Source: Methanobacteriota archaeon (GTDB lineage: Archaea; Thermoplasmatota; Poseidoniia; Poseidoniales; Poseidoniaceae). Taken from it: a stretch of DNA of 64,000 nucleotides. Where the stretch lies: assembly GCA_002719815.1 (NCBI GenBank), contig PBET01000024.1, positions 3,393 through 67,392 on the forward strand, read 5' to 3'. Below are positions 12,873 to 35,783 of the stretch, in pieces. Each line of letters begins with the position of its first letter. Within the stretch, counting starts at the first letter, position 1. The notes beneath the pieces were generated by a model. It saw only the letters and a program-made list of their open reading frames with translations, was not told the origin of the DNA and did not search any database. A program made the position numbers and the translations under genes.

Positions 12873-13499
12873 ATGAAGCAGGCAACAGACGTCTTCAACG
12901 ATTGGGCACACCGAGGCAAAGACGAGGGTATGGAACGTGGACACAGTCCTGCTGTCAATGAAATGTTGGAGGTTGCTTTCCAACGAGTCAATCAAGGAAA
13001 TCAACCCTTTTCATTCGCTGATTTAGGATGTGGAAATGGCTGGGTTGTACGATTGGTTGGTGGGCATGAGAACTGCATGCGAGCTGATGGTTTTGATGGT
13101 GCACCGCACATGATTGAGAAGGCAAACAACATTGATTCGAAACATGGTTATCATCTTGCTCTGTTTCCTGATACACAACCTCCTCAACAATACGATTTCA
13201 TTCATTCAATGGAATTCATTTACTACCTTCATGAACCTCAACAGATGCTACAATCAATTCACGACGATTGGTTGGCCGATGGAGGTTGGGCTGTAATTGG
13301 AATCGATCATTATGCGGAACATGAGGAAAGTCTTGGTTGGCCAGAAGCCCTCGATGTACATATGTCGACATTTACAGAGCAGGAATGGATTGCAATGTGG
13401 AATGACGTTGGATTTACTGAAATTCATGCGTGGAGAGCAAACCAATCCGAAGGAAAACCAGGAACACTCGCCATCATTGGGAAGAAAAATCAGAATTGA
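12873..13499 (+). CDS. Class I SAM-dependent methyltransferase
   Basis: Motif I FADLGCGNGWVV; start chosen at ATG 12873 (MKQATDVF); 3' end overlaps convergent AddA-like gene by 26 nt. Confidence 0.7.
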   Translation: MKQATDVFNDWAHRGKDEGMERGHSPAVNEMLEVAFQRVNQGNQPFSFADLGCGNGWVVRLVGGHENCMRADGFDGAPHMIEKANNIDSKHGYHLALFPDTQPPQQYDFIHSMEFIYYLHEPQQMLQSIHDDWLADGGWAVIGIDHYAEHEESLGWPEALDVHMSTFTEQEWIAMWNDVGFTEIHAWRANQSEGKPGTLAIIGKKNQN

Positions 13500-16400
13500 T
13501 CCCCAACTCAAGGCCCTGTGGTGCACACATTCGTACATCGCCATTGAAAAATGGACACTTTTTGCAGATATCAATCGCTTCCATTGGTAAGCGCTTCGGT
13601 TCGGTAACACCGTTTGAATCTGCAGTAAGGGTTGCCATCCAATGCAGGAGATTCATCAGTTCTTCTTCTGCTTCTTTGCACATCTTATCCGGCATTTGAA
13701 CAAGACGTCCCGTCGTGGCGATCAAGAGTGCTGGTGGCCGAATATCTCGTCTCTTTTCAATGGGTTTTCGTTCTTCTTGCTCACGCAAAACCAATGAATA
13801 AAGCATCAGTTGCAAACGATGATTTCGTAGCATCTGAACCTCCGCTTGGTTTTGTGGTTCAAACGAGAGCGGTTCATTCAGCGTCTCGTACAACGGGTGC
13901 AGTTCGAGTTCTTCCTCTCGCGCACCTGTTGTTTTCAAATCAATAACCTGCAACCAAGCCTGTTGATCTTCACATCCTGCAACCACAAGATCTGCCTGCC
14001 CTTCAAAGAGAACATTGACCGCATCAATCACTGTTCGAAATGACTGGTCAAGTTCTGTGAGTGGTGTTCTCAAACGACCTTTCAGGTCGATTTGTTGATT
14101 GAAAGAAAACGACAACTCCGTTCGCAACCCTTCGATTTCATGGCCATGAATCGCTTGACCTTCGACCATTTTTCCTAAAGCTCCATTTGATAGTCGTTTG
14201 GCCAAATCAATGATTCGTTGCCTCGTTTGCTTCTGTTCATCGCTGGACAATCGATGCCACTCGGGTTGTGATTGCGTTGCATCATCGATTTCCTTATCCG
14301 ATAACAGGTGGTTTTGTTGAGCATTCAACCAAACTTGTCCTAATTCAAAGCCTGTTGTCTTCATTTCTGCTGGATTTGCAATTCCAATTTCAACGAGTCT
14401 GTGGAACATCGATCCAAAGGCAGTTGCCGATGGCCAGCCGACAGAATTAGCCGTTACATCTTCCCCATCGGACCGATCTTTAGTATCCTCCTCACTCGAT
14501 TCGAACTTCGTTTCTTGATGGAGTTTGAAAGGCTCAGATTGCCAGCCTCGTACATGCGACAACCAATAGCGTCGTCGGCAGGAATGGGCCGTATCTAAGC
14601 CATGGGCTGTCATCTTTAACGTCGGGGTTTGATAAACAACGGCTTGTTCAATCTCACTGTCATCTGTCGCTTGTTCAACGAGTTGTTCCATGTTCAGCCA
14701 GTTGGAAAGTACGGAAGTTGGTGATTGTTCGGCAAAGCAATCAGGATGGTGATACATACGCAAGCTCTGTAGCGAATCTTGCATAAATCCACTCGACGTA
14801 TACAACGCATAGGGATCAAACTTCAACGTCTGCTCGCCATATTCTGCTAAACGTTCTCCTTGAACATCGTTGGTAAGACTCCAAGGCTGTTCATCGCCTG
14901 ATGCCAATCCCATGTATCGGAAACCTTCAAGCATCAAATCGCCCATGTTGTTCCCTTTTGCATTCACCTTCATCTCAACCATTGCATCATCACTCAACAA
15001 GCAAGGAGCATTTGGCGAGCCAACGAAGATCAAGCGATCTTTCACCCTGGTAAGTGCAACATAGAATTGACGACGCAATTCAGCTTGATTTTGTGCCTTG
15101 TTCATTTGTTCAGCCAACATCCACAAGGCATCTTCAGGCTTCTCTTTCGACTTCCATGGCTGAATACGGCCTGCAATTACATCTGGTGTAATCAAGACAT
15201 TGTTCTGAGCTTCAATGCTTGAACTGCGACGTCCTGCTTCAAACAATCCTGTGACGATCACAACCGGCGCTTGGAGACCTTTTGCCCCATGAATTGTCAT
15301 GATCTGAATCGCGCCACTTGTTGGTAAAGAACGGGCTTGGGGACCTTTGTTCCCAAGTGTTCCGAACGCCTTCATCTGATCAAGGATCGAGGCGGGTTCG
15401 TGTCCTGATTCACCACCTAATTTTTGCAACATTGCGTACCATGTTTCAGCAACTTGTCGTTCAGATTCATCTGGGAATGCGATGAGGAGATCGCTGTAAT
15501 CCAAGACAGCATCAAAGATTTCGTACATGGCGCCAGAATGTACCAAACGAGCGCATGCTTCCATGAGTGGCCCTTGAGGTTCGCCATCAAAATAGTCGGA
15601 AAAGAAGTGCCAATAATTGTCCACATCCTTCGTTTGGAAAATCTCCTCAATCTGTATGGATGATGCCCCAATAATTGAGGAACGAAGGACGGAATGGGCG
15701 GCATGTCTTGACCCTGGTCGTGCGAGAAGTTCCAACATAGCCATCAACGGTTGAACGACGGGTTGCTTGAGCAACTCACCTTGTTTATCAGCCATAACCG
15801 GCAATCCACGAGCTTGGAGTCGTGCGATTAAGTCGGGAATGTGCTTTCGTGAGTGGACGAGAATCATCACATCTTCAGGCAGAATTGGCTCTTCTGGTTC
15901 TACTTCAACAAAATCTTCCGCTTCTGTTGACCATATCCGAGTTGGTGAGCCTCGAACCAAGGCATCCAATCGAGAAGCGATAAGTTCATGTTCCAAATGA
16001 CGGAGATTTGCATTTCCTGCATCGAACAAGTTGTACCCTTGTGTAAGGCCAAGTGGTAGTTCCTCGGTATCGTTTTGAGTCGGAAGAAGCCACTCGATTG
16101 TCCCTATGCGTTCCGTATCTCGTCCAGATTCTAAGGGCTGAGCAGTTGCATGGAAATCGCCTGGGAATTGGTGATGCCGATGATTAAACGTGTCATCAAA
16201 CATATTGTTGAGCGTTTGAAGTAGGCCAGGTGCTGTTCGGAAATTCGTTCTCAGTTGAATATGGCCTTCGGCTCGTTCAACGATTGTATCATCATCGATG
16301 GCGAGACCTGCGTCGTCAATTCCATAGGAAACGTAGTCGTACGGAGCTGATTTCTCATCTCGGGAATAATCAGCGGCGGAGATGAATGAACCAGATTCAC

Positions 16401-18447
16401 CACCTGCGCCGACGGGCCGAGGATCTCGGCCGTGCCCTTCTTGAGTAAAAGTCTCCATCCGTTTCTCATTAGCCTCGATCTGGTTCGCTACACGAATGGA
16501 TGCAACCATTCGACGCATAACCGTAACCTCAGCCTGACGGAATCGGTAGATGCTTTGCTTCATATCACCAACAATGCAGATGGTTGGGTCCCAGGGACCT
16601 GCTGGTTCAGGGTGTTCTTCGGAAATGCCCTCTCTTCGCCCCCAAAGTCGCGAAAGGAGACGAGCATGTTCTGGATTCGTATCCTGATACTCGTCGATAA
16701 TGAAGGCTCGATATCGTGCACGAATTTGCTTTAATAGCGCAAATCTTCGTTGAAGATCAACGTATTTCTCTTCATCACGTTGCATAATGGTCAGTGCTCT
16801 TCGAATATGTTCATCCGACCATGGCTCATCACCAAGGTCATCCAATGCCTGGACAGCCTCGGGCGGATACCAATGACGAACGATGGCTGGACAGCGAACA
16901 AGGAGTAAATCGCCGACCATGACTTGAACATCGTCAAAATCATGCGCTTCTTCTTGTGCCTTCAAGTGACGAAGTAAATCCTGACAGCCTGAATGAACTG
17001 TATACAAATCGTTCAGAACTTCAACCTGAAGGTCACTAGAAACCCTCTGCATACCAGATGGTGGTTCGGTACCCAACGAAACGCCCAGTGGATGGCGGTC
17101 GTATTTTTCATTCGCATCTCGATGGACAAAAGGCCGTACAGGATTGAGGCAGTAGGCAACTTTTGCAAGCATCAACACCAGACGCCCATCACTTGGGTCA
17201 TGAATCCGGTTTTGCAAACGAGTTGCAGCCTTGGAAGCATCTTTCATGAGTTGTTCCTTGGTTGCCTCCTCAGATTTACGCTTGAAGACTGATGACCACG
17301 TCATCAAGCCTGAAGGCCAGTCTGCTAGCGTATTTGCTCGGGGGAAGTGCCCGTCCTTGAGAATGGTTGGTGCTGGCTCCTTCAACTGTGCATGCGATGC
17401 GGCCGCTGCAACCACCTGGTACAACCACTGAAGTTGTTCTATCGGAGTTGTAGGCAGTGCTTCCCGTGCCAAATGAGCGAGTTGATTGAAACGAGTATTT
17501 GTTGTAGCAACTTGCGCTGGAGCGACAATCACAGAATGATGTTCGAGGAAAACATCAACCCATTCGTTAAGGAATGCATGTACATCTTGAACGACCGGAG
17601 TGATAAGGTGGTGACACTCCTGTAAAATCATGTCCTCAATAAGTCGGTAATCTGGAGGTGTGTCACCATCCCATGGTAAACCAGTTCGAATCGAACGTGA
17701 GCGAAGCCGTCGCTTAGATTCCTCGACAAATAGCGACGATTCTAGCAATCCTTCCAATGCCGTTTGTGCACTTGCTTGACCTCCAAGCCGGATTGCGAGA
17801 CGATTGCGGGCAGCGATGAAAGCATCAGCTGATTGAAGCATGCCCGCTTCGATTGCATCGCGAGCATTTCGTATACGCCAAGCCGCATTCAATGCTTGAC
17901 TTCTCAAAAGAGGGGCTTTTTCTTCAGGAAGTTGTTCTCGACTGACGTGGATTGCTACGAGATCGATATGCGGTGAGAGAATTTCCGACAGGAACGCATC
18001 GATGGTCGATATTGGTGATGATTCAAGCAACGACATCAGCATCGAAACATCGCCTTGGTGACGCAGACGTGGGTCATGCATCCCCATTCGGTCATCGTCT
18101 TTTACAGGATGAGCACGAAGCGATTGAATCCTTTGTCGAATTCTTGACCGCAGTTCAGATGCCGCCTTTCGAGTGAAGGTAATCGCGACGATTTCTTGTG
18201 GCAACAGTCCTTTCCATTCATTCAATGGAGTGCGATCTTTCTTTGCTGCGAGAACGTGGCCTGCACCATACTGTTCCAACCGAATTGGTGGCGGCAAAAC
18301 ATGCGTAGCTCGTTGCTCTGCTGAAAGAAGATGCTGAACATATCGTTCAGCCATAACGGTGGTTTTACCTGTTCCAGCACCAGCATCCAATGCGATGTGT
18401 TGATCGAGATTAAGACCCAGTCGCTGACTTCTGTTGAAGGAAATCAC
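13474..18447 (-). CDS. AddA/AdnB-like SF1 (UvrD-family) helicase fused to C-terminal RecB-family PD-(D/E)XK nuclease with 4-Cys cluster
   Basis: 1657 aa; motifs I AGAGTGKT, II FIIDEYQDT, III VGDMKQSIYRFRQA, IV LRTNFRT, V IMTIHGAKGLQAPVV, VI FYVALTRVKDRL; nuclease VIDLKTTG, QLMLYSLVL; CKKCPFFNGDVRMC. Confidence 0.85.
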   Translation of the reverse strand: MISFNRSQRLGLNLDQHIALDAGAGTGKTTVMAERYVQHLLSAEQRATHVLPPPIRLEQYGAGHVLAAKKDRTPLNEWKGLLPQEIVAITFTRKAASELRSRIRQRIQSLRAHPVKDDDRMGMHDPRLRHQGDVSMLMSLLESSPISTIDAFLSEILSPHIDLVAIHVSREQLPEEKAPLLRSQALNAAWRIRNARDAIEAGMLQSADAFIAARNRLAIRLGGQASAQTALEGLLESSLFVEESKRRLRSRSIRTGLPWDGDTPPDYRLIEDMILQECHHLITPVVQDVHAFLNEWVDVFLEHHSVIVAPAQVATTNTRFNQLAHLAREALPTTPIEQLQWLYQVVAAAASHAQLKEPAPTILKDGHFPRANTLADWPSGLMTWSSVFKRKSEEATKEQLMKDASKAATRLQNRIHDPSDGRLVLMLAKVAYCLNPVRPFVHRDANEKYDRHPLGVSLGTEPPSGMQRVSSDLQVEVLNDLYTVHSGCQDLLRHLKAQEEAHDFDDVQVMVGDLLLVRCPAIVRHWYPPEAVQALDDLGDEPWSDEHIRRALTIMQRDEEKYVDLQRRFALLKQIRARYRAFIIDEYQDTNPEHARLLSRLWGRREGISEEHPEPAGPWDPTICIVGDMKQSIYRFRQAEVTVMRRMVASIRVANQIEANEKRMETFTQEGHGRDPRPVGAGGESGSFISAADYSRDEKSAPYDYVSYGIDDAGLAIDDDTIVERAEGHIQLRTNFRTAPGLLQTLNNMFDDTFNHRHHQFPGDFHATAQPLESGRDTERIGTIEWLLPTQNDTEELPLGLTQGYNLFDAGNANLRHLEHELIASRLDALVRGSPTRIWSTEAEDFVEVEPEEPILPEDVMILVHSRKHIPDLIARLQARGLPVMADKQGELLKQPVVQPLMAMLELLARPGSRHAAHSVLRSSIIGASSIQIEEIFQTKDVDNYWHFFSDYFDGEPQGPLMEACARLVHSGAMYEIFDAVLDYSDLLIAFPDESERQVAETWYAMLQKLGGESGHEPASILDQMKAFGTLGNKGPQARSLPTSGAIQIMTIHGAKGLQAPVVIVTGLFEAGRRSSSIEAQNNVLITPDVIAGRIQPWKSKEKPEDALWMLAEQMNKAQNQAELRRQFYVALTRVKDRLIFVGSPNAPCLLSDDAMVEMKVNAKGNNMGDLMLEGFRYMGLASGDEQPWSLTNDVQGERLAEYGEQTLKFDPYALYTSSGFMQDSLQSLRMYHHPDCFAEQSPTSVLSNWLNMEQLVEQATDDSEIEQAVVYQTPTLKMTAHGLDTAHSCRRRYWLSHVRGWQSEPFKLHQETKFESSEEDTKDRSDGEDVTANSVGWPSATAFGSMFHRLVEIGIANPAEMKTTGFELGQVWLNAQQNHLLSDKEIDDATQSQPEWHRLSSDEQKQTRQRIIDLAKRLSNGALGKMVEGQAIHGHEIEGLRTELSFSFNQQIDLKGRLRTPLTELDQSFRTVIDAVNVLFEGQADLVVAGCEDQQAWLQVIDLKTTGAREEELELHPLYETLNEPLSFEPQNQAEVQMLRNHRLQLMLYSLVLREQEERKPIEKRRDIRPPALLIATTGRLVQMPDKMCKEAEEELMNLLHWMATLTADSNGVTEPKRLPMEAIDICKKCPFFNGDVRMCAPQGLELGINSDFSSQ

Positions 18448-21400
18448 TTTGTTTCACCTCCAATGGATGCAGAAGAGCACGCACTTGCGAGTGAACAATA
18501 CTTGCAGTGATCTCCTGGTGCAGGATGATTCCAGCCGAGTTCACTTGCATCCTGTGCCCGGATTGCGGCAGTAATTCTTGAACTCATCCACGCCCGGAAA
18601 CTGTTACTCTCCGGTGTTGTTCCTTCAGTTGGTATACGGAAATGATTTCCAGAGTAAAACGTTCGAGTTCCGATGGTTCGGCTTTCCTCAAGAAAAGCAA
18701 AACTCGGATCGAGTTCAAGGAGATGTTCCGTATCATCGCCCACTTCTGAGATACCAACGCCAATGACGCGATCGCCTGGATGTGCTAATTCCCAAGCACG
18801 AGCATAGAGTGCTAATTGAATCTCCTTGAAGAGGCCCGCGACATGTCGAATGCCATCTTCACCAGGTTTTGGTCCTTCGATGGTTTTGAGGTCTCGAATG
18901 ATGATGAAGCGCTTCGCAGGAGGTCCACTTCCATCAAAGAAAAGTGGCATCCCTTCTGCGCTCTCATCATAGAGCCCACGCTCGGTTAGTCGTTCAAGGA
19001 GCGATTCATCGAGAACAAGGTGATCAACGCGATCAATTCGCCCACGTAACTTGATGCATGAGGTTTCAAATTGATCATCAAACCCTTCGATTTCTACACT
19101 CAACTCCGTTCCATGTTGCAACGCCCATTCACTGGCAATTGGTGCTGCTGAGGTCAGGTTGAGATCTGCTAAAAGTAGACGTCCGAGTCGCCCTCCAATC
19201 GGAAGCGTTCCGTTGCCTTCAAGCCAATCGTTCCAATCTTCAGGCGAGCAGCCAATCAAATCATTGCAGCGATGAACGGAAACTGCATTTGTTCTCGATA
19301 ACCAGGGAGCGATTTCAGACAAATGCCAGAGCAAACTTTCCCATATTTCTTGGTTTGATAGTGAAGTTCCTTGATGCATTGGCGTACCTTCGGCCAGTGG
19401 CGTCCCTCCTACTTCAATTCCAAGAAGTGTCATGAGATGTTCCTCAATGGCATGAACCAACGTTCCTTTTGTGAGTGGCGCAATGTCTTCAGAGGGCTCG
19501 GGAGTGTTGTCCGTGGCATCGAGTGTCTGTTCAGACCATGCTTGTCGGGGGCAAGTCAGCCAAGGTGTTAATCGGCTTGTTGACCATGTCTTTGATTCCG
19601 TTTCGATCGGTTGACTGGAAAGAATTTCGTTCAGGCTTGGTGAACCATACGTAGGCGGAGGAAGCGGACGAGGGTCGAGTGAAGGCCCCCTCGAATTGCC
19701 ATTCTTCTTGTATCCGAGATGCGGATAGGATGCTGAGGTTCGACCACCACTCACCTCGGCTTGAGAGACCGTGGGTTCGATGACAAGGCCCGTTGTTGTG
19801 AGCAAGCTCTCCCGTATCTCCCATGGCAGAATGCTTCCATTTGCAAGTGGCTTGAATTTTGGTTGGCGACGATAGCGATCGAGATGCACATCGCGTTCAA
19901 ATCGATTCGCTATGGTATTCGCTGACTGAATCGTTCCACTCGGAGTCCGCAACGCTTTCAATTCAAGACCAGTCTGTTGTTGCAGATCTCGTTGCATGTT
20001 CTCTGCTCGTTCAAGTTCCACTTCACCACCGTTCACAGATAATGAAGAAGTTCGATATGTCAGCCAATTTCCTGTTTCTCGAGTCACAATTGACCATCCA
20101 GCACCATCAGAAACTTCTTCCTGCAGGAACGCTGGAATGGCCGCAAGATTCCGTAAATCACCTTGCAGTTCAACGCCTGAAAGGTACTCGACAACCGGTG
20201 TCGAATTACCCGCAGATTCATCATGTTCGGTATCGAAGAGGATCACTTGTTGGCTTGAATTTAGCACAGATTTGAAGAGATGACGCGCCTGACGAACGGG
20301 TAAGTCTCCATCATTCAAGCCTAATTCGACTCGAACAGAATCGTCAATCCAAGGCACTCGCTCAGGCTTCATCGACCATGACTCAGCATCAATTCCAACG
20401 AAGAGAGTGAGGTCCGATGCTACCCCAAACGCTTGCTTTGGTGTACAGATATGTACATCGAAATGACGAACTCGATTCATAGGTAGTTTGGTTTGATCGG
20501 CTGCTAACCGACAAAAATCAATGAATGGAAGACTCGACTGATATTGGAGCAAACCATCAACGGATCGGACCCATGATTGCACGGCACCTACGGAGGCATC
20601 GTAATGCCGTGTACGTTCAAACAACGCCTCCCAGTCACATGCATGTAAAATTGTGCTGAGTACGTCTCGTGGCGTTTTACTTGGCTCGGGCAAGGGTAGA
20701 GAAATGTTTGATGACGCGCCAACGAATGGATTCGCAAGGAAGTTTTTCTCGGTTTCATCGAGTAACGCAGTCCATGATGTTGCAAGGCATTGCAACCACC
20801 ACTGCGTCTCCTCAATCGCTCGCAATTCTTCCTCACGACGATAGGCTTCAACAGCATATGGTTTTGCAACAGCTAAAGAGCCAAGCCACCGTTGGAGCGC
20901 TCCTTTTCCGCCAAGAACGTGGAAACTGCGGCCGATGTTTTCAATCACGTCCAAGTGTGGCCTTGGCCGCCAATCCTTCTTTTCTGGATGGGTCAAATCG
21001 GAAAACAATTTGCCAATAATCGGGAACGCCTTTGACTGGGCGATATCGAACAGTTTAGCTGTTGACCATGCATCTTGGCCATTGGGAATTGACAGAAATC
21101 GAAGTATTGCTTGTATAGCAGAGGTACTTCCAACTGAATCTGCTTGAGTATCGCATGTAATTCCAATGCGCTGCAGACGGCGAATCCATTCCTTGTGGCG
21201 GCCCTTGTCGGCATCGATGAGAAGAATACGTCCTTGTTCATGCTTGTTGAAATGATTGATGACTGAAATTGCGGCATCTGGAATCTGCGAGGCTCGGTCG
21301 AAACTCAGTAAGTGGATTCCTTCTGTCGCGTAATCAGCGTTACCGGATGCTGGAGGCAGAACGGTATGACGTGGGACCCATTCTGGCAGTTGGTCATCGC

Positions 21401-22148
21401 GTTCCAAAAGCGGTAGTTCATCATCGATGTATGCTCCATGAAATCCGAGACGGAATGAGCCTGTGACACAAAGATGATGGATTGGGCTTCGCACTGATAA
21501 GGCCTTGAGAAACTGCTTCTCATCTTCATGAAAGTCAGGCGGATGGTTGAGAAGGAGGATACCACGAATTGCTCCAAGCGTGTAAGGCGTTGGAACATTC
21601 AAATCGGCGAGTGCTGAACAAATTCGGGCGATGACGTGGTGCTCATGCAGAAGATTTTCGTTTTCAAACGATGAAAGAATCCGATCTGCTTCAAATGCGC
21701 CGGGATCTTCTTCCCACGTCGAAAGGATACCATGTTTTGTTGCATACGCATGGAGAGAAAGCAAACGCTCTGATTTTGAAAGTGTCCATGGCCTGGTCAC
21801 GTCGGGATGGAGGCGAGGAAAACGATGATCTTGCGCTGCAGAGGCAAACTTTTCGTGAACTTGTACAAGACCAGTCGATGTTCTTGGCACAAGAACAGGT
21901 AGTCGGAGATCGATCGTTAAGGACTTCAAGAGTCGTTGAAGCGTTGTGTGTCTGCTTGAATCAACAGAGCCCGCTTTCTGAAGAATGGCCTGGATAGACG
22001 AGGACCGAGTGACTTCATTCGGATAGATGACCAATAAATCGTCCCGTCCTGTTGCAATTTCATCCACAACCCAGGACGGGACGGTCGTATCGAAAGGGCA
22101 TGACTCTACTGTGATGTTCTCAGCCATATCCTCCCCACCCATCTTCAT
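18444..22148 (-). CDS. AddB/RecC-like subunit: no Walker A, C-terminal RecB-family nuclease with AddB-type Fe-S Cys signature
   Basis: 1234 aa; GRIDRVDHLVL, FIIIRDLKTIEG, EIQLALYARA; Cys at TCPRQ plus CKYCSLASAC; 4-nt overlap with AddA-like gene. Confidence 0.8.
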   Translation of the reverse strand: MKMGGEDMAENITVESCPFDTTVPSWVVDEIATGRDDLLVIYPNEVTRSSSIQAILQKAGSVDSSRHTTLQRLLKSLTIDLRLPVLVPRTSTGLVQVHEKFASAAQDHRFPRLHPDVTRPWTLSKSERLLSLHAYATKHGILSTWEEDPGAFEADRILSSFENENLLHEHHVIARICSALADLNVPTPYTLGAIRGILLLNHPPDFHEDEKQFLKALSVRSPIHHLCVTGSFRLGFHGAYIDDELPLLERDDQLPEWVPRHTVLPPASGNADYATEGIHLLSFDRASQIPDAAISVINHFNKHEQGRILLIDADKGRHKEWIRRLQRIGITCDTQADSVGSTSAIQAILRFLSIPNGQDAWSTAKLFDIAQSKAFPIIGKLFSDLTHPEKKDWRPRPHLDVIENIGRSFHVLGGKGALQRWLGSLAVAKPYAVEAYRREEELRAIEETQWWLQCLATSWTALLDETEKNFLANPFVGASSNISLPLPEPSKTPRDVLSTILHACDWEALFERTRHYDASVGAVQSWVRSVDGLLQYQSSLPFIDFCRLAADQTKLPMNRVRHFDVHICTPKQAFGVASDLTLFVGIDAESWSMKPERVPWIDDSVRVELGLNDGDLPVRQARHLFKSVLNSSQQVILFDTEHDESAGNSTPVVEYLSGVELQGDLRNLAAIPAFLQEEVSDGAGWSIVTRETGNWLTYRTSSLSVNGGEVELERAENMQRDLQQQTGLELKALRTPSGTIQSANTIANRFERDVHLDRYRRQPKFKPLANGSILPWEIRESLLTTTGLVIEPTVSQAEVSGGRTSASYPHLGYKKNGNSRGPSLDPRPLPPPTYGSPSLNEILSSQPIETESKTWSTSRLTPWLTCPRQAWSEQTLDATDNTPEPSEDIAPLTKGTLVHAIEEHLMTLLGIEVGGTPLAEGTPMHQGTSLSNQEIWESLLWHLSEIAPWLSRTNAVSVHRCNDLIGCSPEDWNDWLEGNGTLPIGGRLGRLLLADLNLTSAAPIASEWALQHGTELSVEIEGFDDQFETSCIKLRGRIDRVDHLVLDESLLERLTERGLYDESAEGMPLFFDGSGPPAKRFIIIRDLKTIEGPKPGEDGIRHVAGLFKEIQLALYARAWELAHPGDRVIGVGISEVGDDTEHLLELDPSFAFLEESRTIGTRTFYSGNHFRIPTEGTTPESNSFRAWMSSRITAAIRAQDASELGWNHPAPGDHCKYCSLASACSSASIGGETK

Positions 22149-32966: not shown

Positions 32967-35081
32967 CTAGACAATTTGCAAGGTATCGTAACCCGTTGGG
33001 CGCATAAGACGACCGTTTTGGTTGAGTTTATCGATGACTTCCTCGGCTTTTTCTCTTGGAATATCGAGGCGTTCTGCTTCATTGAGGACGTCAATCAGTT
33101 GGGCGTAGCCATCACCATTGGCGGACAGACGTTCAACAATGTCGAGAATGGTTCGTTCAGCATGGCGAGCCTTTCCTTTTTGATTGGAAGCGATCGCTGT
33201 TTCATCGAAATTCTCACCCATCAGATCGTATCTCCATGTCTTTGTCAGACGTACAGCTCGCTCAGCATCTTCGATGGTTGCCGTTTCCGACAGTCGAATG
33301 CGGGCACTCGCTTCGGCCAATCGTGCGAGAGCTTCCAATGCACGCGCAGTGATGGCGACTGAGTCCTGATATTCACCGGACTGTTTACGTGTTGAAACAT
33401 AGTAATCGATGATGTGCTTTTTGGCTTCCTCATCCAAATTTGGATGGACTGTTCGCTTCGCGTATGCAACGTACTTGCGGATAAATTCTCGATGAAGGTG
33501 CCCATCCGTATGACTTGGTTTGGTCATGACTGAGCTCAGTTTACGTGGGTCGGGTCTTGATCCCTCATTAACCAATAATTCACTTGTACCGGAGAGTCTG
33601 TTGTCAACAATGTGCCCTGCAATCTTCGCGTCCTTGTCTTCTGAAGGCTCATCTGTCAGCAACCAAATGACATCAAAACGAGAGATAAGTGGTGGAGCGA
33701 GGTTGATTTGCCCGGTAAAGGGAACTTCTGAAACAGGTTGGAAACGGCCTGCCTTTGGGTTCGCAGCGGCCAATACGGCGCAACGTGTGCGAAGGCTTGC
33801 ATTGATTCCAGCTTTTGAAATTGAAATTGTTTGTTGTTCCATCGCTTCGTGCATACTGGATCGATCGGCTTGATTCATTTTGTCGAATTCGTCGATTGCA
33901 GCCAATCCCTGATCGGCGAGAACGAGGGCGCCCGCTTCCAATGTCCAGCGTCCGTCAGCGCTCGCATCTTGAACTGCAGCTGCAGTCAAACCAGCGGCTG
34001 ATGCGGACATACCGGAGGTAAATCGACCGCGAGGAGAAATGTTGCCCATGTAGGCAAGAAGTTGCGACTTTGCAACACCAGGATCACCCATCAAAAGGAT
34101 GTGAATATCTCCACGGTTTCGTGTTCCATCTGGATTGAGTCGCGCAACACCCCCAAACAATTGCAACATGAGCGTTTCTTTGATCTTGTCCATTCCAAAA
34201 ATGGAAGGAGCAATCGACTCAGCGATTCGCTTGTAAACATCTTGATCGGCTGCAAATGTTTTGATTTCTGCTTCTTCCTCATCGGAGACAACTATTTCCT
34301 CCAATGCAAGGTTTTGACGTTCAAGCGATTGAACGCGCATGAAGATATCAAACACAGGGGTGTCCTTTCCAAACTTGCGTTGCGAACGAATGAACAAAAC
34401 GCCGTTGGCTTTGACTCGATCGCCTGGATTGACCTTTCCAGTGAGGTCATGTTCTGCTACACATGAAATGCGTTCAGGCTGGACGCCTCCGCGAACCTGT
34501 TCAGGTAGTTCCTGCAGTTCAATAAACTGTGAATTCGTTAGTGTTGAACGTTCTTGCAATAATTGGAAGCGTGTTTGGCGATTGGTCAAGCCACATCCAC
34601 CATCGATTTGTGAACACTCCATTGGCGTGATGAGTTCCTGTTCGTTGGGTTGCTGAATGATGGTCAAATGTTCGCACGCGACACATTTGAACGTTGCAGA
34701 ATACATTCGAGGACGAACACCAGAGATTTTTGTTACCACGGCATCAATGGAAATCATCAAACCGATATCATCCGAGCGAAGTTGGGAAACGGTGCGAACC
34801 TGGTCGCTTGGAAGGTGAACAATACGCACCCATGGATTGATTGTACCATGGCCCACATCAGCGAGTAACTCTCGAAGGGCTCTGTTTGATGCATCATCAT
34901 GCAAATCTGGTTGTTCAAGAATACTTTGAGCAAAAGTTGGATCAAATCCTTCGATGGTCCGATATGAAACCTCAAGACTCTGGACATCCGGCCAAAGTTG
35001 AGCGATGTTGTGGACATCCTCGGTAAAATGTGCATGCAGAAGTGTCGACCATCGCGCTGTCAAATCAAAGTCTTGAATCAT
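32967..35081 (-). CDS. mcm: MCM replicative helicase
   Basis: Walker A IHILLMGDPGVAKSQ, Walker B AIDEFDKM, arginine finger SRFD, Zn-finger CxxC pairs in N-terminal domain; start set at ATG 35081 (705 aa), no intein. Confidence 0.9.
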   Translation of the reverse strand: MIQDFDLTARWSTLLHAHFTEDVHNIAQLWPDVQSLEVSYRTIEGFDPTFAQSILEQPDLHDDASNRALRELLADVGHGTINPWVRIVHLPSDQVRTVSQLRSDDIGLMISIDAVVTKISGVRPRMYSATFKCVACEHLTIIQQPNEQELITPMECSQIDGGCGLTNRQTRFQLLQERSTLTNSQFIELQELPEQVRGGVQPERISCVAEHDLTGKVNPGDRVKANGVLFIRSQRKFGKDTPVFDIFMRVQSLERQNLALEEIVVSDEEEAEIKTFAADQDVYKRIAESIAPSIFGMDKIKETLMLQLFGGVARLNPDGTRNRGDIHILLMGDPGVAKSQLLAYMGNISPRGRFTSGMSASAAGLTAAAVQDASADGRWTLEAGALVLADQGLAAIDEFDKMNQADRSSMHEAMEQQTISISKAGINASLRTRCAVLAAANPKAGRFQPVSEVPFTGQINLAPPLISRFDVIWLLTDEPSEDKDAKIAGHIVDNRLSGTSELLVNEGSRPDPRKLSSVMTKPSHTDGHLHREFIRKYVAYAKRTVHPNLDEEAKKHIIDYYVSTRKQSGEYQDSVAITARALEALARLAEASARIRLSETATIEDAERAVRLTKTWRYDLMGENFDETAIASNQKGKARHAERTILDIVERLSANGDGYAQLIDVLNEAERLDIPREKAEEVIDKLNQNGRLMRPTGYDTLQIV

Positions 35082-35148
35082 GTTCGCACCACACTGAGGA
35101 ATTAGATATGGACGGCTACCGTTCTTAATGGTTCCATTGCAATTTATG

Positions 35149-35177
35149 CGCCCCTTCATTTCCACTGGAAAACGCCA
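35149..35177 (-). promoter_or_regulatory. Origin-recognition-box (ORB)-like element: TTCCAGTGGAAATGAAGGGGCG (mini-ORB core + G-string) upstream of mcm
   Basis: Read directly on minus strand; single copy found in window; ~70-95 bp upstream of mcm ATG. Confidence 0.4.
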
Positions 35178-35270
35178 TACATTCATACATGCTTTCTCAT
35201 CGAAAACATACAGAAAGTGGAACGGCGCCAAACTCAATAGATTCATATCAAATCAACACGACGGTTTGCC

Positions 35271-35783
35271 ATGATTATCTTCGCGCATGGACTGGAAGGG
35301 TCTCCGAACGGAAGTAAGATTCGTGCCTTACGCAATGCAGGTTTTGATGTTGTAGCGCCTGATTTTCAAGGGATGAATCTCGCTGAACGTGTGGACTTGC
35401 TGGAAGAAATTTGTTTGAAATATGCTTCGAAACGGCCTGTACTTGCTGGATCAAGCTATGGAGGATTGACTGCTGCAATCATCGCAATGAAGATGCCAGG
35501 TGCATTTCGCGGACTTCTCTTGTGCGCTCCTGCACTTCATTTGATTGAGCCTCCTGTGGATGAGAACACTGTTCTTGTTGCTCCAAATGGATTGAAGACG
35601 GTCATCATTCATGGCCTTGAAGACGATATTGTCCCCATTTCGTGCAGTATTGACTACGCAGCTCGCTCGGGGAATGATGTCGTTGCATTTCATCAGGTCA
35701 ATGATGGCCATCGCCTTGCTGAATCGCATCAAGAGATTATCGACGCTGCCCAGTTGTTGAGTGGCGAGACGATTGATTCATGA
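35271..35783 (+). CDS. Small alpha/beta-fold serine hydrolase/esterase
   Basis: IIFAHGLEGSP, nucleophile elbow GSSYGG, IIHGLEDDIVP, catalytic His near C-terminus. Confidence 0.7.
   Translation: MIIFAHGLEGSPNGSKIRALRNAGFDVVAPDFQGMNLAERVDLLEEICLKYASKRPVLAGSSYGGLTAAIIAMKMPGAFRGLLLCAPALHLIEPPVDENTVLVAPNGLKTVIIHGLEDDIVPISCSIDYAARSGNDVVAFHQVNDGHRLAESHQEIIDAAQLLSGETIDS

Follow-up and report, generated by a model that had tools for sequence, protein, structure and literature searches.

What is the role of a single origin-recognition box (ORB) that lies upstream of mcm, the gene of the replicative helicase, in a Marine Group II archaeon (Ca. Poseidoniaceae)? In a typical archaeal replication origin, several ORBs are combined with an AT-rich unwinding element and a neighbouring initiator gene, and dependence on such a neighbouring gene holds for every characterised archaeal origin (PMC4010727). 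An earlier reading made from the letters of the DNA (the sequence-only reading) had noticed an ORB-like element in the mcm upstream region and supposed that it may serve an Orc1-responsive mcm promoter rather than a full origin. Here, we have analysed this element in the window, that is, the whole 64-kb stretch of DNA, as well as in related loci and metagenomic contigs. In the literature, we found no description of an mcm-linked ORB or of any Poseidoniales origin.

The mcm locus and its gene neighbourhood

In the window, mcm occupies positions 32967-35081 on the minus strand and encodes a protein of 704 aa with the Pfam domains MCM_OB, MCM and MCM_lid, homologues of which are 85-98% identical in many Poseidoniaceae MAGs. 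The gene is followed on the same strand by gatE, and on its other side a 189-bp intergenic region is common to mcm and a small divergent alpha/beta-hydrolase gene (35271-35783, plus strand; Abhydrolase hits). The gene upstream of mcm varies by clade and may be the divergent hydrolase, a divergent 340-aa gene or, in Thalassarchaeaceae, a co-directional response regulator, although the ORB-type box keeps with mcm throughout. A putative Shine-Dalgarno-like GGTG is located at 35087-35090 (minus strand), 6-9 nt before the mcm ATG, and GGTG or GGAGG is present at a Shine-Dalgarno-like position in most clades.

Two other readings of the same letters were considered and discarded. A 759-aa ORF that extends to 35246 and covers the box is a spurious extension of mcm, since the alignments with homologues begin at residue 1-2 of the 704-aa protein, public gene calls are of 704 aa, and in-frame stops occur between the box and the ATG in several clades. 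A structured RNA at the box gave no Rfam match, and an RNA hairpin is impossible because the dyad would leave a loop of 1 nt.

Elsewhere in the window, a NAD-dependent, bacterial-type DNA ligase with LigA domains and BRCT is encoded in this archaeal genome (58829-60949, minus strand), with genes for a PD-(D/E)XK nuclease and an RNase T-like exonuclease nearby. In addition, two adjoining ORFs at 13474-22148 (minus strand) are very large (1657 aa and 1234 aa), and an identical 1657-aa product on related contigs contains UvrD helicase and PD-(D/E)XK nuclease domains.

Sequence and identity of the ORB-type box

The full box, TTTTCCAGTGGAAATGAAGGGG, is located at 35151-35172 on the minus strand (36.6 bits with the weight matrix described below) and consists of a dyad mini-ORB core, a 4-nt spacer and a G-string that points towards mcm. 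The TTCCA-N-TGGAA dyad core, TTCCAGTGGAA, is exact at 35160-35170 (minus strand), and the 12-mer around it, TTCCAGTGGAAA (35159-35170, minus strand), whose frequency the sequence-only reading had proposed to check, is an exact match that occurs once in the 64-kb window. The G-string GGGG (35151-35154, minus strand), which is invariant in all 67 Poseidoniales loci, begins 4 nt after ...GGAAA, so that the arrangement of core and G-string described earlier is exact and its spacing is that of the published ORB consensus. As to the 29-mer GGCGTTTTCCAGTGGAAATGAAGGGGCGC reported on the minus strand, its sequence was right and its coordinates were off by one (35176-35148 instead of 35177-35149); it spans -95 to -67 relative to the mcm ATG, in agreement with the approximately 70-95 bp given for it. 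In alignment A1, which comprises 19 lineages, the core columns are invariant over the loci except for the centre base and one flank base. From the domain assignments in PMC9738581, the winged-helix domain is the expected Orc1 contact on the mini-ORB dyad, and the initiator-specific motif of the AAA+ domain is the expected contact on the G-string.

The box has no equal within the window. The pattern TCCAGTGGAAAYNNNGGGG has a single match, which is perfect (35151-35169, minus strand), even if up to 3 mismatches are allowed, and the number of perfect matches expected in 64 kb is about 6e-5 by simple arithmetic. With the 24-nt matrix, no site in the window other than the box scores 8 bits or more, which bears out the earlier remark that a single good ORB is present.

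The pan-archaeal ORB consensus is CTTCCAGTGGAAACGAAAGGGGT (PMC4153887, Table 2), and that of Methanomassiliicoccales, the sister lineage of Marine Group II, is GTTCCAGTGGAAATGG-AGGGGTA (PMC4153887). The box fits both over the dyad core, the spacer and the G-string. Moreover, the stretch TTCCAGTGGAAATGAAGGGG of the window is identical in 20 of 20 nt to ORB3 of 'Ca. Methanomassiliicoccus intestinalis', GTTCCAGTGGAAATGA-AGGGGT (PMC4153887). A 24-nt weight matrix (31.6 bits) was built from mcm-linked sites only, and on metagenomic contigs of other archaea (L174, L220, L151, L215, L234 and L180) it assigns scores of 24-36 bits to clusters of 2-4 ORBs adjoining orc1/cdc6 genes. At the sequence level the element is a member of the ORB family, as had been proposed: its consensus match is essentially perfect, and the matrix derived from its relatives finds multi-ORB clusters beside orc1.

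Conservation of the box among relatives

One copy of TCCAGTGGAAAYNNNGGGG per locus, in mcm sense, was found in 67 of the 67 Poseidoniales loci for which upstream sequence was available, with at most one substitution per copy (TCCAATGG or TGCAGTGG). The MCM proteins of these loci have identities down to approximately 58%, and more distant MCM representatives were sampled afterwards. Among the latter, the box, with C at the dyad centre, recurs in three more lineages, the MCM of which has no more than 43-47% identity, namely the Thalassarchaeaceae contig L256 (47%) and the clusters P0212 (44%) and P0220 (43%), the box of both clusters lying in the same place and orientation. P0212 bears a Poseidoniales name; members of P0220 are named only Euryarchaeota/Thermoplasmatota, and their placement with these lineages is based on a Thalassarchaeaceae-like gene neighbourhood. 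No box was detected in P0213, P0215 and P0217, the three next-nearest lineages, which are non-syntenic and taxonomically unassigned.

Outside the box, flanks and spacers diverge freely among the loci. The box lies 80-106 nt from the ATG, most clades having a distance of 88-89 nt. Over 855 kb of related loci, nothing besides the box scored 10 bits or more apart from its own opposite strand, the adjacent mini-ORB and one weak unrelated site (10.3 bits). Given this conservation across relatives, the occurrence of the motif is far beyond chance.

A separate observation concerns the clade of L039-L056, L067, L068 and L075, in which approximately 75 nt upstream of the ORB (e.g., L040:5830-5905), between a divergent 'MPAHSFEP' gene and the ORB, are almost invariant. 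This exceeds what a mini-ORB needs, and the stretch may extend a coding sequence at its N-terminus, form a leader or contain extra protein sites.

Promoter geometry and flanking mini-ORB-like elements

In alignment A1, the order of elements is an upstream mini-ORB-like element, the ORB core with GGGG, an A/T block and a Shine-Dalgarno-like motif before the start codon. The A/T block is found 21-24 nt after GGGG, ungapped, in 17 of the 19 lineages and occurs as ATTAAGAA, TATAAAC, TTATATG, ATATACC or GATAAAC. In the window, the putative TATA-like box of the mcm promoter (ATTAAGAA, 35122-35129, minus strand) follows the G-string at 21 nt and precedes the ATG by 41-48 nt. We infer both the TATA box and the transcription start solely from conservation. 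Across divergent relatives, the box thus keeps a constant polarity and a constant spacing to the putative core promoter of mcm.

All clades share a second mini-ORB-like element, TTCCAnTGGAAG, which occupies the same place in each of them and precedes the main box by 40-55 nt. It is best preserved in the L039 clade (TTCCAATGGAAGC, 14.8 bits) and reaches 10-13 bits in the L015, L016, L024 and L025 clades, the 95th percentile of the background being 5.0 bits, while the window clade has only a half-site, AGTGGAA(A/C), of at most 1 bit. In the window this half-site is the inverted AGTGGAAC at 35216-35223 (plus strand), about 45-55 nt upstream of the main box, present exactly as the sequence-only reading had described its weaker fragment; judged by its letters and those of its relatives, it is a decayed remnant of the conserved second mini-ORB. 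The window clade has in addition a mini-ORB-like sequence, GCAATGGAACC (35130-35140, minus strand), that abuts the TATA-like box and is kept in this clade only; the corresponding 'ttgcaatggaaccattaagaac' block is conserved there and missing from other clades. A candidate third ORB within the hydrolase gene, the inverted-repeat partner at 35288-35300, was rejected: it encodes a conserved HGLEG motif, and its likeness to an ORB is coincidental.

Is the mcm upstream region a replication origin?

The paired arrangement of box and mini-ORB raises the question of whether the mcm upstream region is a Poseidoniales replication origin, sole or secondary, that adjoins the gene of the helicase and not that of the initiator. 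Such an origin would consist of a compact inverted pair of ORB and mini-ORB that loads MCM beside the gene of the helicase. The main box is a full-consensus ORB, the second element is kept in all clades (10-15 bits in some), and the two, inverted and with outward G-strings, mirror the orc1-adjacent pairs of L174, L220 and L151; the predicted origins of Methanomassiliicoccales, furthermore, use ORB pairs that are only 39-47 nt apart (PMC4153887).

The hallmarks of an origin are otherwise missing. There is one full ORB at the locus and no second one; its partner attains at most 15 bits and has decayed in the window clade to the half-site mentioned above, whereas in Sulfolobus oriC1 neither of the two flanking ORBs is dispensable (PMC12141716). 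The sequence-only reading had pointed to AT-rich stretches in the region and had proposed a search for an AT-rich unwinding element between inverted ORBs. Neither expectation was borne out: the AT content around the box does not exceed that of the rest of the loci, the spacer has an AT fraction of 0.546 as compared with 0.535 in the loci, and the 30-nt segment richest in AT (0.72 versus a background mean of 0.685) is within background. The GC-skew analysis that had been suggested likewise revealed no switch at 35.1 kb; left of the box the skew amounts to -0.017 and right of it to -0.008, a weak test insofar as the skew of this lineage may be small, and it tracks the transcribed strand equally on both sides. 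Gene orientation does not switch at 35.1 kb either, minus-strand genes being dominant on both sides.

An initiator gene, which the earlier reading had advised to locate, was found neither in the window nor in related loci nor beyond the ends of the window. By tblastn and an Orc1 HMM, with an Orc1 query that was checked against PDB 2QBY_A, no orc1/cdc6 gene was detected within about 70 kb of the box, be it in the window or in the 6-8 kb past either of its ends, nor was one found in the 6-10 kb around mcm in any of over 80 loci. The same two methods detected no Orc1/Cdc6 over 76 related loci, and Pfam scans of 40 window ORFs returned no Orc1 domains. The protein homologue search with Sulfolobus Orc1-1 as a query retrieved crenarchaeal proteins only; for Marine Group II, Orc1/Cdc6.1 and.2 are reported in the literature. 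A metagenome scan for pairs of perfect mini-ORB cores yielded no recognisable Marine Group II orc1 locus among the matches listed, which came from other archaeal origins, from mobile elements and from two additional sites upstream of mcm (L256 and L261), and a protein search with the ORF beside the ORB pair of L192 matched that ORF alone. The distance from any initiator gene sets the locus apart from every characterised archaeal origin (PMC4010727). On the other hand, these searches of the window, related loci and metagenomic contigs did not reveal a canonical orc1-linked origin of the lineage, and there is no other ORB in the 64-kb window or the 855 kb of related loci, as would be expected if the origin were at mcm.

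The strict spacing of the box to the TATA-like box and the ATG suits a promoter element and not an origin. Taken together, we consider it unlikely that replication starts at this locus, which may also be a domesticated remnant of an ancestral origin.

A predicted Orc1/Cdc6-binding element of the mcm promoter

The explanation that we favour, with moderate confidence, is that the box is a predicted Orc1/Cdc6-binding element of the mcm promoter. The preference of the sequence-only reading for an Orc1-responsive promoter over a full origin agrees with the sequence evidence, as the hallmarks of an origin are missing and the spacing to the TATA-like box and the ATG is fixed. It is the fixed polarity, together with a spacing of two helical turns to the TATA-like block, that points to a promoter-bound factor.

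One Orc1/Cdc6 monomer could occupy the box, with its winged-helix domain at the TTCCAGTGGAA dyad and the AAA+ initiator-specific motif at the G-string, such that the ATPase side would lie about two helical turns upstream of the mcm TATA/BRE. This AAA+ side would then be located at roughly -50 to -65 from the likely transcription start and would face the mcm BRE/TATA at a distance of approximately 15-20 bp. The weaker mini-ORB 40-55 nt upstream and, in the window clade, the third mini-ORB that touches the TATA box might allow for cooperative or dose-dependent occupancy, and mcm transcription could in this way respond to how much initiator is present or to its nucleotide state. As to the sign of the effect, we infer that activation, via recruitment of TBP/TFB, would be favoured, because the box lies just upstream of BRE/TATA and not over the core promoter. 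Both the binding of Orc1 to the box and any resulting effect on transcription are predictions here.

Several studies have reported properties of initiator proteins that set a precedent for such a role. In vitro, Pyrococcus Cdc6 binds a single long ORB with high affinity and a single mini-ORB weakly (PMC1904270). Numerous ChIP-seq sites of Sulfolobus Orc1 proteins lie outside origins, and transcript profiles are altered in mutants of these proteins (PMC3607249), while the Orc1 paralogue Orc1-2 is a bona fide global transcription regulator (PMC9738581). The ORB nearest the gene in orc1-adjacent origins, moreover, often has a geometry like that of the mcm box: its G-string is turned towards orc1, and it lies approximately 90-140 nt upstream of that gene (-94 in L220 and -137 in L151). 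The use of ORBs outside origins is not universal, however, since oriC is practically the sole in vivo Cdc6 site in Pyrococcus (PMC1904270).

Binding of Orc1/Cdc6 need not imply regulation of mcm. The box could serve for titration or sequestration of the initiator in the manner of datA, for chromosome organisation, or persist as a conserved relic of an ancestral origin. Isolated ORBs to which no role has been assigned are indeed known in 'Ca. M. intestinalis' (ORB3 and ORB4; PMC4153887), as are the non-origin Orc1 sites of Sulfolobus (PMC3607249). But neither titration nor a relic has any need for a fixed polarity and for distances of 80-106 nt to the ATG and 21-24 nt to the TATA-like box that are kept between MCM proteins 43-60% identical, nor for a box that follows mcm when the neighbouring gene changes, and we regard this possibility as rather improbable. 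Least credible of all is a role of the motif as an operator for some unrelated transcription factor that binds as a dimer, its ORB likeness being accidental: a TTCCA-N-TGGAA palindrome is of the type bound by many winged-helix dimers, but the conserved part is asymmetric, with AAAY and GGGG invariant on one side at exact ORB spacing and no mirror-image C-string, it matches the ORB consensus of the sister order over 20 consecutive bases, and its matrix picks out the ORB clusters adjoining orc1.

ORB-like sites on other contigs

Searches with the ORB pattern also brought up sites in quite different settings. Thirty-six IMG/VR viral contigs (L077-L112) have the full pattern (e.g., L086:1292-1315, L094:730-753 and L091:4236-4259), and the free positions and flanks of these sites look ORB-like and not random. 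Three of them are located 0.5-1.8 kb from a terminase large-subunit gene, on the basis of which some tailed, presumably archaeal, viruses seem to carry an ORB of the host type. On two small viral contigs (L093:1722-2092 and L095:3213-3583), two full inverted ORBs of 30 and 35 bits lie approximately 330 bp apart in an origin-like layout; neither of these contigs encodes Orc1 or MCM.

Two Thermoprotei contigs contain two to three ORBs each (L191:4153-4344 and L207:1240-1360), L207 having two, one of them of only 18 bits. The ORBs of L191 flank a 62-nt spacer that is 81% AT, and their neighbours are rpS19e and a gene for a small protein of 125 aa (MPKVKIEDILPSGEKI...). No orc1 was found on L191 (12 kb) or L207 (5 kb), which suggests an ORB origin that does not adjoin its initiator gene.

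Other matches represent different types of element. Dense tandem arrays of the 11-nt unit TCCAGTGGAA(G/A)T, satellite-like in appearance, were observed at L243:3314-4138 and L204:32-767 and have the mini-ORB core in common. On a small contig resembling a mobile element (L259:1262-2709), an Orc1/Cdc6 gene is preceded by three perfect mini-ORB cores without G-strings, an ORB flavour other than that of the mcm box.

Implications and comparison with known systems

ORBs as origin elements were already known, as were regulators of the Orc1 family that act via other motifs or at non-origin sites whose sequence and targets are unpublished. What is new here is a canonical ORB as a putative promoter-proximal element of the replicative helicase gene, in an arrangement that spans a whole order of globally abundant, uncultured marine archaea. 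The linkage between ORB and mcm appears to be specific to Poseidoniales, since no ORB at mcm was reported for Methanomassiliicoccales by Borrel et al. (PMC4153887) and oriC is practically the only Cdc6 site in Pyrococcus. The arrangement suggests that the initiator may control expression of the helicase through a direct transcriptional link, which would be the archaeal counterpart of replication genes controlled by DnaA boxes. There is also a small chance that the Poseidoniales origin has moved to the helicase gene, or that a second one has been kept beside it, as a minimal pair of ORB and mini-ORB. If so, it would be the first conserved archaeal origin that does not adjoin its initiator gene, an exception to the adjacency of replicator and initiator in every characterised archaeal origin, and a marker for coverage-based estimates of growth rate in Marine Group II populations.

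The mcm box shares the TTCCA-N-TGGAA dyad, AAAY, the 3-nt spacer and the G-string with the ORBs of oriC1-type origins (Sulfolobus ORB1-3, Pyrococcus ORB1-3, Aeropyrum ORB and Methanomassiliicoccales ORB1-4). Unlike these, it is solitary and not part of a cluster of at least two full ORBs, has neither an AT-rich unwinding element nor an adjacent initiator gene, and lies at a fixed distance to the mcm start and the TATA-like box. In this respect it resembles the isolated ORBs of 'Ca. M. intestinalis', ORB3 downstream of ftsZ and ORB4 downstream of nifH/nifE (PMC4153887), each of which is likewise a single full-consensus ORB distant from orc1 and from other ORBs. However, those are observations in a single genome and are not beside mcm, whereas the mcm box is found order-wide and is tied to the promoter of one gene.

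Regulation by a protein of the Orc1/Cdc6 family at promoters, including its own, has a precedent in Orc1-2 and the DDRE damage-response regulon of Sulfolobales (PMC9738581). The recognition sequence of Orc1-2 is the hexamer ANTTTC, and the winged-helix domain of this protein no longer has the arginines that contact an ORB (PMC9738581); the mcm site, in contrast, is a canonical ORB, which implies an Orc1 of the initiator type. ORBs at a replication gene other than orc1 are also known from the intragenic cluster in dp1, the gene of the PolD small subunit, of Pyrococcus/Thermococcus, which is conserved at the order level and bound by Cdc6 in vivo (PMC1904270). That cluster lies inside a coding sequence within the 5-kb oriC region by cdc6, while the mcm box is promoter-proximal and distant from any orc1.

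In bacteria, DnaA boxes in promoters, as in the autoregulation of dnaA and in nrdAB, are cases in which the origin sequence of the initiator is reused as an operator. The analogy with DnaA boxes has also been drawn in PMC3607249. The mcm box differs from them in the protein family and the domain of life concerned, and in that its predicted target is the helicase gene itself.
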